From Nitrospirota bacterium (GTDB lineage Bacteria; Nitrospirota; JACRHJ01), in the NCBI GenBank assembly GCA_021789495.1, contig JAJYJM010000001.1:89004-153003 (forward strand): a DNA stretch of 64,000 nucleotides, written 5' to 3'. Shown one piece after another: positions 41,091 through 62,186 of this stretch; within the stretch, counting starts at the first letter, position 1, and every line of letters begins with the position of its first letter. The position numbers and the translations under genes are program-made. Below the pieces are notes generated by a model. The model was not told the DNA's origin, did no database searches, and was given only the letters and a program-made list of their open reading frames with translations.

Positions 41091-41936
41091 ATGCCTGTGA
41101 GGGTTCCTGTAGCCGCGCCGTTTTATTCAGGGGACATCCGTGCGCAGATGGAGAGATACGAACGCGGGTTCACGCCTCCATCCGGCCTGCCGGAGATAAT
41201 TTCGGGCGGGATTGTCCCTCATGCCGGATGGTATTATTCCGGCGGGACAGCGTCGAAGGTTTATCTTTCCATAAAGCTCAGGCGCTCTCCCAGGACGTTC
41301 GTCATCTTCGGGGCCGTGCACGCTCCCGGCGTCAGTTCTTTCGCGGTCTATCCCGACGGCTCATGGCAGACCCCTATAGGCGAGGCAAAGGTAGACCGCG
41401 CGCTTGCCGAAATGTTCCTTGAAGAGATACCGGATTTACTCGTGTCCGACACGCGCGCCCATGCCCTGGAGCACTCGATAGAAGTCCAGCTCCCGATGAT
41501 AAAACACCTCTTTACGGATGCCATGATAGTGCCCGTCGCGGCGCCGCCGCTCGAAGAAGCCGTGAAGGTCGGCGGCAGGATAGGAAGGCTGATTGCCGGG
41601 ATGGACGTTGCGGTGATAGGCTCGTCCGACCTCACGCATTACGGAGACGATTACGGCTTTACTCCCGCCGGATACGGCGAAGGCGCAAGGGCGTGGATGC
41701 GGTCAAACGATATGAAGATTATCCGCGCCGCGCTCGACATGCATGAAGAGAGCATAATCCCGGAGGCCGAGGCGGACGGGAACGCATGTGGGGCGGGCGC
41801 GATGGCCGCGACAGTCGCCGCCGCGAAATCCCTCGGCGCAGAGAAAGGGATTTTACTGGAACACACGTCGAGTTTCGACGCGCATCCTGAGGGCGAGTTC
41901 CGTATGGCGGTAGGCTATGCGGGGATTATTTTCTGA
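41091..41936 (+). CDS. AmmeMemoRadiSam system protein B (Memo-like)
   Basis: APFYSGD...IVPHAGWYYSGGTASKVY and 281 aa length fit the MEMO1 family. Confidence 0.7.
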   Translation: MPVRVPVAAPFYSGDIRAQMERYERGFTPPSGLPEIISGGIVPHAGWYYSGGTASKVYLSIKLRRSPRTFVIFGAVHAPGVSSFAVYPDGSWQTPIGEAKVDRALAEMFLEEIPDLLVSDTRAHALEHSIEVQLPMIKHLFTDAMIVPVAAPPLEEAVKVGGRIGRLIAGMDVAVIGSSDLTHYGDDYGFTPAGYGEGARAWMRSNDMKIIRAALDMHEESIIPEAEADGNACGAGAMAATVAAAKSLGAEKGILLEHTSSFDAHPEGEFRMAVGYAGIIF

Positions 41937-42408
41937 CGTCGCGCGGAGGCTCCACGTCGGTAATGGTCCAGCCGACCTTGATCTTGAGGTCTTTCCTGAG
42001 GGAATGATAAACCGAGCAGTATTTTTCCTGCGAGAGCGCAACCGCGCGCTCGATGCGCCGCTCGGTGATACCGCTTCCGCTCACGTGTATGTGCATCGTG
42101 ATAGACTTGAAATACTGCGGCGGGGTGGTGTTCCTTTCGGCGTCGATGTCCACCTTGAACTTCTCGATACGGCATTTCATTTTTTTGAGGAAGCTCAGGA
42201 CGTCTATCCCCATGCACCCGGCAAGCGAGAGCATAAGCGACTCCGTCGGCATACAGCCCCACTGCACCTCGGCGTCGAACTCAATCTCGTAGCCGGACTG
42301 CGTCATGCCCTTGAAGAGCAGGTCTCTCTCCCAGAAGAGAAAGCCCTTCATTTGGCCCCTTACCTTGCTTTTATATTCCTCAAGCTGAAGTTCCGCATCG
42401 TGCGTCAT
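41926..42408 (-). CDS. OsmC/Ohr family peroxiredoxin-like protein
   Basis: 160 aa with two conserved Cys (LAGCMGID ... CSVY). Confidence 0.7.
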   Translation of the reverse strand: MTHDAELQLEEYKSKVRGQMKGFLFWERDLLFKGMTQSGYEIEFDAEVQWGCMPTESLMLSLAGCMGIDVLSFLKKMKCRIEKFKVDIDAERNTTPPQYFKSITMHIHVSGSGITERRIERAVALSQEKYCSVYHSLRKDLKIKVGWTITDVEPPRDVRK

Positions 42409-42410
42409 TT

Positions 42411-43196
42411 TTAAATTTTCGCCTTTTCTTCCGCCGCCATGTATTCAGACAACAGGGTTTTGAATTCCTTGCGAAGACCTACCACCTCTCCGATTACGAT
42501 AAGCGCCGGAGTGTCGAGCCCCGCCGCCGAAGCCGCCGAAAAAAGCTCCGAAAGCGGCGCGATCACCTGCCTCTGGCCGTGCGAAGTCCCGTGGCTTATG
42601 ACCGCCGCGGGCGTGTTTCCGGGGCGTCCGGCGGAGATGAGGCGCTCCGCTATCTCGGGGAGGCGCGTAAGTCCCATGTATATTACAATCGTGCCGACGG
42701 CGGTGGAAAGCTTCTCCCAGTCCACGGGGTCTTCAAGCCCGCTTCCCGGATGCCCCGTGACGAACGCGACGCTGCCGGAGACGCCCCTGTGCGTGACGGG
42801 TATGCCGAGCGAACCGGGGACGGCCACGCCGGACGTTACGCCGGGGACGACCTCGCAGGGAACGCCCGCTTCGCCGAGCGCCATGACCTCCTCGCCGCCG
42901 CGCCCGAAGACAAACGGGTCTCCGCCCTTGAGCCGCACGACCGTATTGCCAGCCAGCGCCTGCTCTATGAGCGTGCGGTTTATCTCTTCCTGCGAAGGGC
43001 ACATCCTGCCCGCGCGCTTGCCCATGTACAGGAGCTTTGCGTCCGGAGGCGCGAGCTTAAGGAGCGACTCCTGCACGAGGGCGTCGTAGACCACCACCTG
43101 CGCCTTCTTCAGGATGGCCGCGCCTTTCAGGGTTATAAGCTCCGGGTCTCCGGGACCCGCACCGATGAGATATACGATGCCTGTTTTTACTGCCAT
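42411..43196 (-). CDS. cobA: uroporphyrinogen-III C-methyltransferase (SUMT)
   Basis: VYLIGAGPGDPELITLKG...VVRLKGGDPFVFGRGGEE signature, 261 aa. Confidence 0.85.
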   Translation of the reverse strand: MAVKTGIVYLIGAGPGDPELITLKGAAILKKAQVVVYDALVQESLLKLAPPDAKLLYMGKRAGRMCPSQEEINRTLIEQALAGNTVVRLKGGDPFVFGRGGEEVMALGEAGVPCEVVPGVTSGVAVPGSLGIPVTHRGVSGSVAFVTGHPGSGLEDPVDWEKLSTAVGTIVIYMGLTRLPEIAERLISAGRPGNTPAAVISHGTSHGQRQVIAPLSELFSAASAAGLDTPALIVIGEVVGLRKEFKTLLSEYMAAEEKAKI

Positions 43197-43215
43197 TGCA
43201 AACTTCCTTTTGCTG

Positions 43216-60067: not shown

Positions 60068-60155
60068 CGATCTCCTTCCTTCAAGACCGGTTGACGCTTA
60101 TCCCGTCCCGCTCGTTAAAGCGGGACGGGACCGTAAAGACCGCTTCCGAGTTTGG

Positions 60156-60491
60156 CTATACGCAGCCGGTCGGCTTGGGAAGCCCGGCGATTTTGCAGGC
60201 CTGTTTAGCGGGCCCGGCGGGGTAGAGCTGGTAGAGGTATTTCGTGTTGCCCTTCTCCGGCCCGAGCTTTGCGCCAATGGCCTTGACCAGTATTTTGATC
60301 ATCGGGGCTATCTTGTATTCCGCATAATAATCCCTGAGGAAATTGACAACTTCCCAGTGCGCGGGGGTCATCTCGACTTCTTCCTGCTCCGCCAGGAAAC
60401 CTGCGACGTCCTCGTTCCAGTCGTTCAGGTTAATCAGATACCCGTCCTCGTCAACCTCGTAAGTTTTGCCTTTGAATTCAATCGTCGGCAT
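60156..60491 (-). CDS. dsrC: DsrC
   Basis: The C-terminus CKIAGLPKPTGCV carries both conserved Cys. Start probably at the internal Met (MPTIEFKGK). The ORF track gives 60533. Confidence 0.85.
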   Translation of the reverse strand: MPTIEFKGKTYEVDEDGYLINLNDWNEDVAGFLAEQEEVEMTPAHWEVVNFLRDYYAEYKIAPMIKILVKAIGAKLGPEKGNTKYLYQLYPAGPAKQACKIAGLPKPTGCV

Positions 60492-60782
60492 CTTGCTACC
60501 TCCTGATTTATAGAGAGTTACGCTGTCACCCACAGACGCCCCAGCGACACCTGTGATTCTATAAAAATGGCTTGACGTTCTGCCTTGTTCCGCGGCTTTA
60601 TGACCCGGACTTCGGACGGGAAAGAATAAACTTCGCGTTTTATTGCCGGAGGTTATGCTTCTCGGGAACCAATTTTAAAACGCCGTTTATTTTTTGCTGA
60701 TACTATAAGTCTGGAAAGGCATGTTGTCAAGCTTTTTTAAAGGGCATTAATATATAAAATTTTAAAACCTTTATAAATTTAG

Positions 60783-62186
60783 TTAATAGACTCCTTTGGC
60801 CTTACCAATCGCAGTTTTTCTTATTAAATCCACGAATGCAGGCGCCCAGCCGGGCGTCCCGGCGGAATGCATATGCGTATAAGCGGCCAACACATTATTA
60901 TATGTCACACCGTCGCGGGTTCCGTCTATTCCCCTGCCCCGCAGCGTCCGGAAGGCGAATCCCGCGTCTTCGCCCAGCCTCTCGATGCTGGAATGATGGA
61001 ACTCGTGCGCCCGTATCTCATCCGCGAATACTGGCCACGAACCCTCCCCCGTGGGGCGCAGCAGGACATATCCGTGCCCTGCGGGCCGCTTGGACATCTT
61101 TATGGTATACGGGAAGACCTCGGCCATGCGGCACATAAGCCCTTCCCATACTATGCCCGCACAGAGATACATAAGCCCGCCGCACTCGGCGTAAATCGGC
61201 ATGCCGGCGTCGGCGGCGTCTTTTACCGCCTTCCTCATGGAGGCGTTCTTTTCGAGGGCCTCCATGTGGACTTCCGGGAACCCGCCTCCTATATAAAGCG
61301 CGTCCACTTCGGGCAGGGTTTTGTCGTTAATGGGCGAAAACGGGACAAGCTCCGCCCCAGCCGCCCGGAGCGCCTCAAGGTTCTCCGGGTAATAGAACGT
61401 AAAAGCCCTATCCATCGCCACGCCAATCCGGACGACAGGCTTCGGAATGACCACATTCTCATGCTTCGCCTCCGGAAGCGCTCCGGCGGAGGAGGCTATT
61501 TCGATTATCCTGTCCAGGTCGATGTTCCCGGCTATGATGTCCCGCATCTCGGAGATTACCGGAAGAAGCCCTTCCTCCTCCCTCAGCGGCACAAGGCCCA
61601 GGTGCCGCATACGGATTCCCATCTCTTCTCTGTGCGGCAAGGCCCCGAGAACCGGCACGCCGCAAAAACGCTCCACGGCCTCCCGGAGCTTCTTTTCGTG
61701 CCTTGCACCCTTTACCTTGTTAAGAATAATCCCGGCGATTTCCGTATCCGGCTCAAAATCGCGGAACCCGTTTACGAGCGGCGCAATCCCCCTGGTCATG
61801 CCGTAGCAGTCTATTACCAGCAGGACGGGGGATTTAAGGAGCCTTGCAAGTCCGGCGGTGGAGTCGGTTCCCTCGATGTCCATACCGTCGTAGAGGCCCA
61901 TGTTGCCCTCTATTACGGATATGTCCGCGCCTTTTGCCCGCCTCTGAAAGCTTTCCAGTATCCTTTCGGCCCCCATCATGTAGAAATCGAGGTTGTAGGA
62001 CGGCCTGCCCGTCGCGGCCTCGTGCCACATCGGGTCTATGAAGTCCGGCCCTTTCTTGAACGGCTGGACCTTGAGTCCCCTGGCGGAGAGCGCGGCGCAA
62101 AGCCCTATGGTAACCGTGCTTTTGCCGGAGCTTCTGTGCGGGGCGGATATTGTTAGTCTTGGGAGAGACAAATTCATAACAGGCAT
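60783..62186 (-). CDS. cobyrinate a,c-diamide synthase family amidotransferase (CbiA/CobB; possible DsrN siroheme amidase)
   Basis: ISAPHRSSGKSTVTIGLCAAL N-terminal ATPase domain plus a C-terminal GATase domain, 467 aa. Heads the dsrC-MK unit. Confidence 0.8.
   Translation of the reverse strand: MPVMNLSLPRLTISAPHRSSGKSTVTIGLCAALSARGLKVQPFKKGPDFIDPMWHEAATGRPSYNLDFYMMGAERILESFQRRAKGADISVIEGNMGLYDGMDIEGTDSTAGLARLLKSPVLLVIDCYGMTRGIAPLVNGFRDFEPDTEIAGIILNKVKGARHEKKLREAVERFCGVPVLGALPHREEMGIRMRHLGLVPLREEEGLLPVISEMRDIIAGNIDLDRIIEIASSAGALPEAKHENVVIPKPVVRIGVAMDRAFTFYYPENLEALRAAGAELVPFSPINDKTLPEVDALYIGGGFPEVHMEALEKNASMRKAVKDAADAGMPIYAECGGLMYLCAGIVWEGLMCRMAEVFPYTIKMSKRPAGHGYVLLRPTGEGSWPVFADEIRAHEFHHSSIERLGEDAGFAFRTLRGRGIDGTRDGVTYNNVLAAYTHMHSAGTPGWAPAFVDLIRKTAIGKAKGVY

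Follow-up and report, generated by a model that had tools for sequence, protein, structure and literature searches.

Gene content and layout of the cluster

The DNA analysed here is a stretch of 64,000 nucleotides (hereafter the window) from contig JAJYJM010000001.1 of a Nitrospirota bacterium (assembly GCA_021789495.1), and the subject of this work is a cluster of genes for dissimilatory sulfur metabolism (dsr genes) at positions 41926-62186 of it. A preliminary description, made by a model from the sequence letters, had presented this region as an uninterrupted minus-strand supercluster. The six-frame listing of open reading frames (ORFs) gave 26 consecutive co-directional genes on the minus strand, from 62186 (start of dsrN) to 41926 (stop of osmC), and the independent gene calls stored with public contigs carrying an identical DsrA comprised the same 26 genes and none on the opposite strand, so that the uninterrupted run was borne out. 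The gene identities proposed in that description all agreed with scans against NCBIfam and Pfam. The intergenic gaps in the run were 0-124 bp, with the sole exception of that between dsrN and dsrC (249-291 bp). The GC content of the cluster (0.54-0.60) was the same as that of the remainder of the window, and a foreign island was ruled out on this ground. Long plus-strand ORFs within the run, such as 44860-45912 and 60867-62156, were left uncalled by the independent gene caller and were therefore regarded as antisense shadows. The run is bounded by two genes on the plus strand:

41091-41936, plus strand: Memo/AmmeMemoRadiSam-B gene, left boundary, convergent with osmC
62265-63173, plus strand: CysM/CysK cysteine synthase gene, right boundary, divergent from dsrN

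Through the latter gene, a sulfide-assimilating enzyme adjoins the dissimilatory dsr cluster.

Reductase core, DsrL and sulfur relay

The genes for the sulfite reductase, its small partner DsrD, the oxidoreductase DsrL and the sulfur-transfer proteins are as follows (aa, amino acids; scores are against the family models named).

60156..60491, minus strand: dsrC, 111 aa from ATG (125 aa if from GTG at 60533); TIGR03342 167 bits (cutoff 53.5)
53081..53437, minus strand: dsrE, 118 aa, Cys77 in VVCVAAAKRRG; TIGR03012 110 bits (cutoff 89)
52704..53060, minus strand: dsrF, 118 aa; TIGR03010 109 bits (cutoff 94)
52391..52687, minus strand: dsrH, 98 aa, Cys18 in LESCI; TIGR03011 89.6 bits (cutoff 49)
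50471..51649, minus strand: dsrA, 392 aa; TIGR02064 586 bits (cutoff 393), full-length equivalog match
49292..50368, minus strand: dsrB, 358 aa; TIGR02066 530 bits (cutoff 341), full-length equivalog match
49035..49280, minus strand: divergent dsrD, 81 aa, winged helix, directly after dsrB
47341..49020, minus strand: dsrL type 2, 559 aa; NF009410 601 bits (cutoff 516)
44092..44328, minus strand: tusA, 78 aa, Cys in GMVCPEP; NF001423 52.5 bits (below cutoff 78), Pfam TusA

The matches of DsrA among solved structures in the PDB were the DsrA of A. fulgidus and of Desulfovibrio. Identity of DsrA was 65-70 % to the proteins of dsrD-bearing lineages and 51 % to that of L089, the single oxidative-type cluster in this comparison (comparison loci carry L numbers throughout). 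In a neighbour-joining tree of DsrA and DsrB, calculated without Allochromatium and Chlorobium references, the proteins formed a clade beside Desantisbacteria and Aquicultor, within the radiation that bears dsrD and dsrL. The DsrAB of lineages with mixed reducer and oxidiser markers has been described as intermediate between the reductive and oxidative types (Klier 2024, PMC11406059).

A profile built from 25 positional orthologues of the 81-aa protein aligned by hhalign with canonical DsrD of Desulfobulbia (for which Pfam gives E 5e-29) with a probability of 90.4 % and E 1.4e-6 over 65 columns, and a gene of this kind was found directly 3' of dsrB in about 55 loci. The AlphaFold 2 (AF2) model of the protein was a winged helix with the topology H-b-H-H-wing (predicted local distance difference test, pLDDT, 78). 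No solved DsrD structure was matched by sequence with either the single protein or the profile as query. Acidobacterial members of this divergent family have been treated as DsrD (Hausmann 2018, PMC6018796), and DsrD is presented in PMC8794893 as an activator of sulfite reduction. Downstream of dsrA in two loci from metagenome-assembled genomes (MAGs) named Myxococcota and 'Deltaproteobacteria' (L084 and L078), a single ORF of about 465 aa combines dsrB with the dsrD-like gene through an acidic linker.

DsrL carries the NADP-binding YRR motif (SYRRTRTEM, residue 293), is free of the insertions of DsrL-1A and is about 560 aa long, as is characteristic of DsrL-2, and has Ser and Arg at the positions of Cys39 and Cys42 of NfnB. 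The Arg ligand stands in SALRP in the window and in every dsrD-linked DsrL, versus SWKCP in L089. The combination of YRR with Arg replacing Cys marks the NADP(H)-specific DsrL-2 found with reductive DsrA, and DsrL-2 is known from proven oxidisers too (Löffler et al., PMC7596348).

The adjacent dsrE, dsrF and dsrH all scored above the TusD/DsrE, TusC/DsrF and TusB/DsrH equivalog cutoffs and constitute a canonical type I set. Cys77 of DsrE and Cys18 of DsrH are presumably the active-site residues, corresponding to Cys78 of DsrE and Cys20 of DsrH in A. vinosum. Outside the clade of close relatives described below, the nearest relatives of DsrE (64-70 %) belong to Magnetococcales, Sulfuricaulis, Thiohalobacter and the oxidative cluster L089 (70 %). 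Within the clade the DsrE, DsrF and DsrH proteins are 61-87 % identical, their genes lie directly upstream of dsrA, and tusA is in the same cluster. The C-terminus of DsrC, ...QACKIAGLPKPTGCV, contains both conserved cysteines (CysB-x10-CysA-x). The DsrC proteins of L089 (77 %), Aquicultor and Desantisbacteria share 74-77 % identity with it, those of the reducer-like group about 50 %. Two variations were seen in clusters of oxidative-type relatives, both between dsrEFH and dsrA: L090 (11085-12607) has dsrC in tandem, with three called DsrC-domain genes (224, 111 and 111 aa) and four segments matched by tblastn, and L089 (10001-11108) has one additional DsrE-like gene.

Judged by these identities and motifs, the cluster is chimeric, with reducer-like DsrAB, DsrD and DsrL-2 and oxidiser-like DsrEFH, TusA and DsrC. 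That reducer and oxidiser markers surround a single dsrAB of apparently reductive type had been overlooked in the preliminary description.

Rieske/cytochrome b genes linked to dsrMK

Between dsrC and dsrE lie the genes for the membrane-linked part of the system:

59336..60067, minus strand: dsrM, short form, 243 aa, NarI-like dihaem cytochrome b; DsrM model 187.7 bits (below cutoff 300)
57821..59323, minus strand: dsrK, 500 aa, HdrD-like catalytic subunit; NF045796 582 bits (cutoff 400)
57515..57820, minus strand: dihaem DsrJ-like lipoprotein cytochrome c, 101 aa, haem motifs CMLCH and CNNCH; no family match
57013..57498, minus strand: Rieske [2Fe-2S] protein, 161 aa, twin-arginine translocation (Tat) motif RRAFLG, CTHLGC/CPCH boxes; TIGR01416 69 bits, PetC models below cutoff, Pfam Rieske
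56355..57011, minus strand: cytochrome b6-like protein, 218 aa; NF002990 216 bits (below cutoff 325)
55908..56339, minus strand: subunit IV / cytochrome b C-terminal-like protein, 143 aa; PF00032 60.9 bits
55352..55891, minus strand: monohaem cytochrome c, 179 aa, CAECH, signal peptide and C-terminal membrane helix; no family match
53562..55340, minus strand: Ala-rich all-helical repeat lipoprotein, 592 aa, lipobox LSSC; no Pfam or NCBIfam match

DsrM scored below its cutoff because it is a short form, without the three insertions (14, 16 and 10 aa) that DsrM of the MKJOP type has in the region of the third transmembrane helix. The short form was found in all loci with linked Rieske/cytochrome b genes and the long form in the dsrMKJOP clusters L006, L009, L022, L027, L031, L046, L047 and L089; the dsrMKJOP cluster of Desantisbacteria (L013, dsrC-M-K-J-O-P-A-B-D-L) likewise has a short DsrM. 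The dihaem cytochrome aligned over its full length with the trihaem DsrJ of L013 (30 % identity, E 2e-9), and the third CxxCH and the upstream Cys that serves the His/Cys haem of trihaem DsrJ are missing from it. We concluded from this alignment that it is a truncated DsrJ homologue and not a canonical member. Among 5.8 billion proteins its family accounts for no more than 65 clusters; the members are unnamed or labelled 'hypothetical', and a Pfam domain is found in none of them.

The Rieske boxes, the four haem-ligand His residues and the split into b6 and subunit IV are all present in the next three proteins, and the NCBIfam cutoffs were not reached. The best PDB matches of the b6-like subunit were b6 of b6f complexes (180 bits), and the Cys in its GCFGG motif is presumably at the position where haem ci/cn is bound covalently in b6 and in the cytochromes b of Firmicutes. 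In most loci with the module, the gene after subunit IV encodes a monohaem cytochrome anchored at its C-terminus: homologues of the window protein hold this position in L085, L087, L095 and L100, and monohaem proteins assigned by position only occur at the same place in L097, L099 and L096. For the 592-aa lipoprotein, a search of 1.84 billion representatives gave about 10 relatives at E<1e-30, and its AF2 model is all-alpha and of low confidence (pLDDT 68, predicted template modelling score 0.46); a homologue of 542 aa (P0252, E 4e-25) stands in the same position in L100, a locus named Chloroflexi.

Six of these genes lie between dsrK and dsrE, and five of the six recur elsewhere as a unit with dsrM and dsrK. 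Homologues of the module were collected from the DsrA-based set of loci described below and by two protein searches, with the cytochrome b and with the dihaem cytochrome, and eleven contexts outside the clade were inspected, in MAGs named to at least five other phyla (Phycisphaerae-like L024, L098 and L101; Ca. Tariuqbacter L062; KSB1 L096 and L099; Eremiobacterota L097; L100; and the unassigned L095). The results showed that a DsrM-like gene lies directly 5' of the string dihaem cytochrome-Rieske-b6-subunit IV in 10 of the 10 informative contexts, L096 starting at a contig end. In L097 the bc genes come before the DsrK-like gene and so are nested between M and K, and in the Phycisphaerae-like loci dsrK is displaced and dsrM still accompanies the module. 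A scan of metagenome contigs with the cytochrome b gave only four near-identical loci.

No homologue of DsrO or DsrP was detected by tblastn in the window or in any locus with linked Rieske/cytochrome b genes; by the same method DsrO was found in 26 and DsrP in 12 canonical loci. As far as gene content tells, the module and DsrOP exclude each other locally. In the open-access literature we found no description of dsrMK, DsrK or DsrM together with a Rieske module. The apparently new part of the cluster is accordingly the string dsrM(short)-dsrK-dihaem DsrJ-like-Rieske-b6-subunit IV-monohaem cytochrome-lipoprotein, standing where dsrOP normally sit. The preliminary description had listed the bc-complex genes and had missed that, on the evidence of these alignments and contexts, they are a recurrent unit with dsrMK and that the small cytochrome is a truncated DsrJ.

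In L097 (Eremiobacterota MAG GCA_031082125.1, 7372-12194), L099 and L096 the module string occurs without dsrAB in the DNA fetched. Genes next to it there encode giant HdrA/MvhD-like or Qmo-like flavoproteins, a CoA-disulfide-reductase/rhodanese-like protein and a sulfate transporter, so that the module may also take part in other thiol/disulfide chemistry.

Transhydrogenase genes beside dsrL

Downstream of dsrL are three further redox genes:

46793..47263, minus strand: rubrerythrin/ferritin-like four-helix protein, 156 aa, two ExxH motifs; PF02915 53.5 bits
45929..46780, minus strand: nfnA-like, 283 aa; NF004862 401 bits (cutoff 220)
44440..45909, minus strand: nfnB-like, 489 aa, YRR motif; TIGR01316 576 bits (cutoff 472)

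Both transhydrogenase subunits resemble the solved NfnAB enzymes (4YLF, 5JCA) over their full length, with scores of 257-547 bits: the NfnA-like protein matched the small subunit of P. furiosus NfnI (5JCA) with 323 bits and T. maritima NfnA with 257 bits, and the NfnB-like protein matched T. maritima NfnB (4YLF_B) with 547 bits. The NADP-binding YRR motif is shared by DsrL and the NfnB-like protein. Electron bifurcation would be the predicted activity of the pair. The arrangement is stable: nfnAB lies two genes downstream of dsrL throughout the clade, and the rubrerythrin-like gene is kept between dsrL and nfnA in L005, L085 and L087. This position of nfnAB, downstream of dsrL and the rubrerythrin-like gene, finds no mention in the paper on DsrL (PMC7596348), in which neither 'transhydrogenase' nor 'NfnA' occurs. 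NfnAB beside a DsrL of the NADP(H) type is the second notable link in the cluster, of lesser novelty than the membrane module.

Conservation of the gene order

The exact DsrA is present on several ENA, NCBI and Logan contigs. Its cluster at 90 % identity has 45 members, and both this and the corresponding DsrK cluster include proteins that NCBI names 'Nitrospirota bacterium'; the clade is common in metagenomes from peat, wetland and sediment. The best DsrA match among species representatives is in a peat Nitrospirota MAG (89 % identity, on a short contig). The nearest homologues of DsrE form about 23 clusters of 76-93 % identity, exclusively from metagenomes. In the contexts of two of these relatives (87 % and 76 %), from ENA and Joint Genome Institute (JGI) assemblies of different samples, the gene order from dsrN to the CBS gene is identical, and the JGI contig L093 has dsrN through the lipoprotein gene in unchanged order. 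Members of the clade that keep the gene order range over 83-89 % identity in DsrA and 76-87 % in DsrE. Since the identical order was found in at least eight independently assembled contigs, an assembly chimera or other artefact was ruled out. Gene order in these relatives indicates that the arrangement is real and is under selection across a clade in which DsrA has diverged to 83 %.

Synteny outside the clade was assessed with the 26 proteins by tblastn against 80 loci around DsrA relatives, taking one genome per GTDB species and flanks of up to 10 kb. With the exception of the peat Nitrospirota MAG, these loci have DsrA of at most 70 % identity and come from Acidobacteriota, Zixibacteria, Ignavibacteria, Myxococcota, Desulfobulbia and others. 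Homologues of dsrEFH, tusA, nfnAB, the rubrerythrin-like gene and the lipoprotein gene were found within 10 kb of DsrA in 0 of the 79 loci at or below 70 %, which have in common with the window only the core dsrAB-dsrD-(dsrN)-dsrL-dsrC-dsrMK. In the loci sampled, the full gene order is restricted to an uncultured Nitrospirota clade known from metagenomes only. The preliminary description had considered the consolidated organisation worth attention and had said that it would be ordinary if the order were ubiquitous in a well-studied clade. The comparison supported the description of a consolidated locus, conserved across the uncultured clade, and the order proved not to be ubiquitous in any well-studied one, the full order being confined to these unstudied Nitrospirota.

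Comparison with known Dsr systems

Mixtures of dsrD, dsrEFH and dsrL have been reported in SAR324, Nitrospirota, Nitrospinota, CG2-30-53-67 and Actinomycetota and read as a retained transitional state (Klier 2024, PMC11406059; Neukirchen 2023, PMC10504309). This 'group two' or chimeric Dsr resembles the present system in having reducer and oxidiser markers in one genome, DsrL of type 2, and DsrAB beside the 'group three' lineages with dsrD and dsrL. In DsrD-encoding SAR324, dsrEFH lies away from dsrAB (Klier 2024, PMC11406059), whereas here all markers are in one co-directional cluster, dsrJOP is replaced, and nfnAB, the rubrerythrin-like gene, tusA and cobA are included. Reductive DsrAB together with DsrEFH has been found in Aquicultor and one SAR324 family only, and Nitrospirota have been described as mostly dsrD-positive without dsrL (Diao et al.); among genomes with type-I dsrEFH, only 2.4 % have reductive dsrAB (Plum-Jensen et al.). 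The general kind is therefore known, and the packing of all markers around one dsrAB is uncommon and not new in principle.

The clusters of Acidobacteriota and Zixibacteria, dsrAB-D-(N)-L-C-MKJOP (Hausmann 2018, PMC6018796), share with the window the order dsrAB-dsrD-dsrL, the genes dsrN, dsrC and dsrMK, the divergent DsrD and a DsrA of 65-70 % identity, but have long-form DsrM and DsrO/P and are without dsrEFH, tusA, nfnAB and the lipoprotein gene within 10 kb. The oxidative clusters of green and purple sulfur bacteria and the Nitrospirota-like L089 (dsrN-EFH-C-AB-L-MKJOP, no dsrD) also have dsrN, dsrEFH, dsrC and dsrL near dsrAB, and sirohaem genes (dsrN, dsrV/W); the DsrA of L089 is only 51 % identical, however, and the window differs from them in the presence of dsrD, in the Arg instead of Cys as ligand of the distal cluster in DsrL and in having no DsrOP.

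In the DsrMKJOP complex, quinol is oxidised at DsrP, electrons pass P-O-J-M-K to the DsrC trisulfide, and DsrJ contacts DsrM (cryo-electron microscopy (cryo-EM) preprint 10.64898/2026.08.25.746951). The window encodes the same logic of DsrM, DsrK, a DsrJ-type cytochrome, a quinone-interacting subunit and a periplasmic Fe-S protein (Barbosa 2024, PMC10861901; 10.64898/2026.08.25.746951), but with b6 and subunit IV for the NrfD-like DsrP, a Rieske [2Fe-2S] protein for the [4Fe-4S] DsrO, a DsrJ of two haems without the His/Cys haem, and a short DsrM. Cable bacteria have dsrTMKJ without adjacent dsrOP (PMC13047784), and their DsrMKJ is without a known partner (cryo-EM preprint 10.64898/2026.08.25.746951); there, DsrM is long and DsrM-2-like, DsrJ is trihaem and no Rieske/cytochrome b genes are linked, whereas here the gene string itself includes a candidate partner. 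The b6-type Rieske/cytochrome b complexes (b6f and the menaquinol:cytochrome c reductases of Firmicutes and Heliobacteria) share the split cytochrome b, the Tat-exported Rieske protein and c-type partners; here, by difference, these are joined in a putative operon with a module of the HdrDE/DsrMK type and a DsrJ-like cytochrome, and no family model reaches its cutoff. Anammox bacteria reportedly also have Rieske/cytochrome b complexes with extra redox modules.

Cofactor, accessory and regulatory features

The remaining genes of the run are the following:

60783..62186, minus strand: dsrN, CbiA/CobB-family a,c-diamide synthase, putative sirohaem amidase, 467 aa; TIGR00379 471 bits (cutoff 261)
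51720..52385, minus strand: DVU0298-family HEAT-repeat protein, 221 aa; NF045662 149.6 bits (cutoff 75)
43586..44029, minus strand: CBS-pair protein, 147 aa; Pfam CBS, CBS-containing NCBIfam models
43216..43566, minus strand: DsrC/TusE-family paralogue, 116 aa; TIGR03342 68.8 bits (cutoff 53.5)
42411..43196, minus strand: cobA/SUMT, dsrW-like uroporphyrinogen-III C-methyltransferase, 261 aa; NF004790 319 bits (cutoff 198)
41926..42408, minus strand: OsmC-family protein, 160 aa; NF008009 78 bits (below cutoff 138), Pfam OsmC

DsrN scored 483 bits against the CfbB model, below its cutoff of 560, and its homologues adjoin dsrAB or dsrC in most related loci; homologues of cobA lie near dsrAB in five other lineages. 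The preliminary description had drawn attention to cofactor genes at both ends of the locus. Both dsrN and cobA are indeed there, but this is an already known property of dsr clusters, whose described cofactor genes include dsrN, dsrV and the cobA homologue dsrW(a) (Hausmann 2018, PMC6018796). The gene for the DVU0298-family HEAT protein follows dsrN in four other lineages (L006, L028, L029 and L056). The DsrC paralogue has neither CysA nor CysB: its sequence contains ...KAWKVAGLPNPGEEILVY... and has KAWKVAGLPNPGEE... where DsrC has QACKIAGLPKPTGCV, and is extended at the C-terminus. The CBS-pair protein and this adjoining cysteine-less paralogue may be regulatory, and the diiron rubrerythrin-like protein together with OsmC suggests protection against peroxides.

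The best promoter-like match in the region precedes dsrC:

60702-60730, minus strand: sigma-70-like promoter TTGACA-N17-TATAGT upstream of dsrC, 11 of 12 matches

In the dsrC leader (60534-60782, minus strand) the promoter hexamers, a block ATAACGnnGTTTTAAAA and an inverted repeat CACAGG..CCTGTG, which sits just before the ribosome-binding site of dsrC, are all conserved in L085 (2428-2785), L087 (1758-2117) and L093 (4169-4472). Together they could constitute a regulated 5' leader of dsrC, and dsrC is probably the first gene of a separate transcription unit that includes the genes downstream. With the dsrC promoter conserved, the 20 kb is therefore to be called a supercluster and not a proven single operon. 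Searches with Rfam and ARAGORN gave no RNA gene or riboswitch in the cluster, the only RNA gene in the 64 kb being a tRNA-Phe at 231-306.

Other features of the window lie outside the cluster. A lipid-biosynthesis cluster at 2670-13171 (minus strand) encodes two FabF-like ketosynthases, two phytoene-desaturase-like flavoproteins and a B12-binding radical-SAM protein near TIGR04072 'lipid biosynthesis B12-binding/radical SAM' (335 bits, cutoff 360). An ORF of 647 aa at 14647-16590 (minus strand) matches aldehyde:ferredoxin oxidoreductase over its first ~220 residues only (150 bits, cutoff 868). A lipoate-protein-ligase-like gene with weak LplA matches is located at about 39782-40597 (plus strand); with the Memo gene it directly follows the osmC end of the dsr cluster and is convergent with osmC; specific lipoate ligases are linked elsewhere to sHdr-type sulfur oxidation.

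Proposed pathway and alternative explanations

We propose that the locus encodes a complete, clade-conserved Dsr set of chimeric ('transitional') character around one reductive-type DsrAB, operating most likely in a reversible or disproportionating manner; we give this, jointly with the gene identities, a probability of roughly 0.55. Oxidiser-type sulfur donors and a reducer-type DsrD occur in one co-directional string, which favours reversible or disproportionating metabolism over a fixed direction, and the single string likewise makes it look unlikely that DsrD and the sulfur donors are switched by separate transcription. As in Allochromatium, sulfur would be relayed from TusA through DsrEFH to DsrC, and DsrAB would interconvert sulfite and DsrC-bound sulfur, with DsrD tuning the reductive reaction. 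DsrL-2 would link DsrAB to NADP(H), and NfnAB would link NADP(H) to ferredoxin and NAD(H), providing a tie to autotrophy if the pathway is oxidative and a source of NADPH if it is reductive. DsrK and DsrM would exchange electrons with the membrane via the dihaem DsrJ-like cytochrome, the Rieske protein, b6, subunit IV, the monohaem cytochrome and the lipoprotein in place of DsrO and DsrP, and DsrN and CobA would supply siro(haem)amide. The gene identities are what the analysis establishes, and the electron and sulfur routes are deduced from them.

Several points weigh against this proposal. The pathway of this uncultured organism is a prediction from gene content. Genes for sat, aprAB, qmo, sox and a terminal oxidase are all absent from the 64-kb window, and the sequence is compatible with reduction, oxidation or disproportionation. 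The DsrD-like protein scored below threshold against Pfam PF08679 (15.2 bits, cutoff 24.2; E 0.027), Foldseek with its AF2 model returned generic winged-helix domains only, and our identification of it as a divergent DsrD draws on the profile-profile comparison and gene position only. The conserved promoter before dsrC, finally, means that the block is not necessarily a single transcript.

A fixed direction in either sense appears unlikely, the two senses being about equally so. A plain sulfite or sulfate reducer would use DsrAB, DsrD and DsrL-2 with NADPH delivered via NfnAB, and DsrEFH and TusA would be relics or serve unrelated sulfur trafficking. DsrAB, DsrD and a YRR DsrL-2 of the Arg type are indeed of the kind found with reductive DsrA, and the carriers of the membrane module that have no dsrEFH (L024, L062, L098, L100 and L101) all have dsrAB, most of them with dsrD nearby. 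On the other hand, DsrE, DsrF and DsrH keep their active-site cysteines across the clade at the identities given above, with their genes directly upstream of dsrA and tusA in the cluster, which points to selection, and type-I dsrEFH genomes only seldom (2.4 %) have reductive dsrAB.

In the opposite case, the organism would be specialised in sulfur oxidation and a reductive-type DsrAB would work in reverse, as has been suggested for cable bacteria and Desulfurivibrio; electrons would go from DsrMK to menaquinone, then through Rieske/cytochrome b to cytochromes c, and from these to a terminal oxidase or a reductase for nitrate or nitrite. The presence of type-I DsrEFH, TusA and an oxidiser-like DsrC agrees with this, as does the occurrence of DsrL-2 in proven oxidisers, and a quinol:cytochrome c oxidoreductase would be needed downstream in the oxidative direction only. 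However, DsrD, an activator of sulfite reduction, is retained and conserved, DsrL has the Arg ligand typical of reducer-associated DsrL-2, and the same bc-linked module is found in lineages without dsrEFH. The reversible or disproportionating Dsr set is therefore the explanation that we prefer.

With regard to the membrane module, we propose by analogy that the Rieske/cytochrome b6 unit has taken over from DsrOP without being orthologous to it, since the unit stands at the place of DsrP and DsrO, and two cytochromes with three c-haems in total stand at the place of the trihaem DsrJ. Three routes may be considered: electrons could flow from the Rieske protein through the cytochromes to DsrM and DsrK in a reduction coupled to a Q-cycle; DsrMK and the bc unit could both feed the same cytochromes c, which would suit oxidation; or the short DsrM could itself oxidise quinol. 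We put forward only tentatively the further idea that DsrM, DsrK, the DsrJ-like cytochrome, the Rieske protein, b6, subunit IV, the monohaem cytochrome and the lipoprotein form one new respiratory complex, a DsrC-trisulfide/quinone oxidoreductase capable of a Q-cycle. Two further considerations weigh against the proposed membrane step. Synteny by itself does not prove a physical complex, and Rieske potentials are usually well above those expected for the cofactors of DsrM and DsrK, so that a linear reductive route from the Rieske protein through the truncated DsrJ and DsrM to DsrK would run uphill and be energetically awkward.

It is rather improbable that the Rieske/cytochrome b genes encode an ordinary complex III that merely adjoins dsrMK, with the small cytochromes as its c-type subunits and no tie to Dsr. 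A full set of subunits for a b6c-type complex is present, and a joint complex is a prediction from gene order. Yet the DsrM-like gene is directly upstream in all ten informative contexts outside the clade, the genes are nested between M-like and K-like genes in L097 and dsrM stays when dsrK is displaced, the first cytochrome is a DsrJ homologue, and it is precisely the loci with the module that are devoid of DsrO and DsrP. That DsrEFH is the TusBCD of tRNA 2-thiouridine synthesis and the DsrC paralogue its TusE, as the NCBIfam model names TusD, TusC and TusB might suggest, is hardly credible, for in every clade member the genes lie between the dsrK-linked genes and dsrA, the two nearest contexts examined outside the clade are both within dsr clusters, and the paralogue is devoid of the cysteine required for TusE function.

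Significance

Predictions of sulfate reduction or sulfur oxidation in an organism are routinely based on its dsr content, and here both sets of markers surround a single DsrAB, which makes the clade well suited for testing whether Dsr metabolism can be reversible or disproportionating. The adjacency of DsrL-2 and NfnAB suggests a route from NADP(H)-linked sulfite reductase chemistry to ferredoxin-dependent carbon fixation. The role of DsrJOP, and the reason for two quinone-interacting subunits, is a question addressed by the 2026 cryo-EM work, and the proposed replacement of DsrOP in lineages named to at least six phyla provides an independent handle on that role and on energy conservation in sulfur respiration. 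If the membrane proteins do form a single complex, it would alter the yield of protons per electron or render the step reversible, and it would be the kind of 'missing partner' postulated for systems with DsrMKJ only, such as those of cable bacteria.

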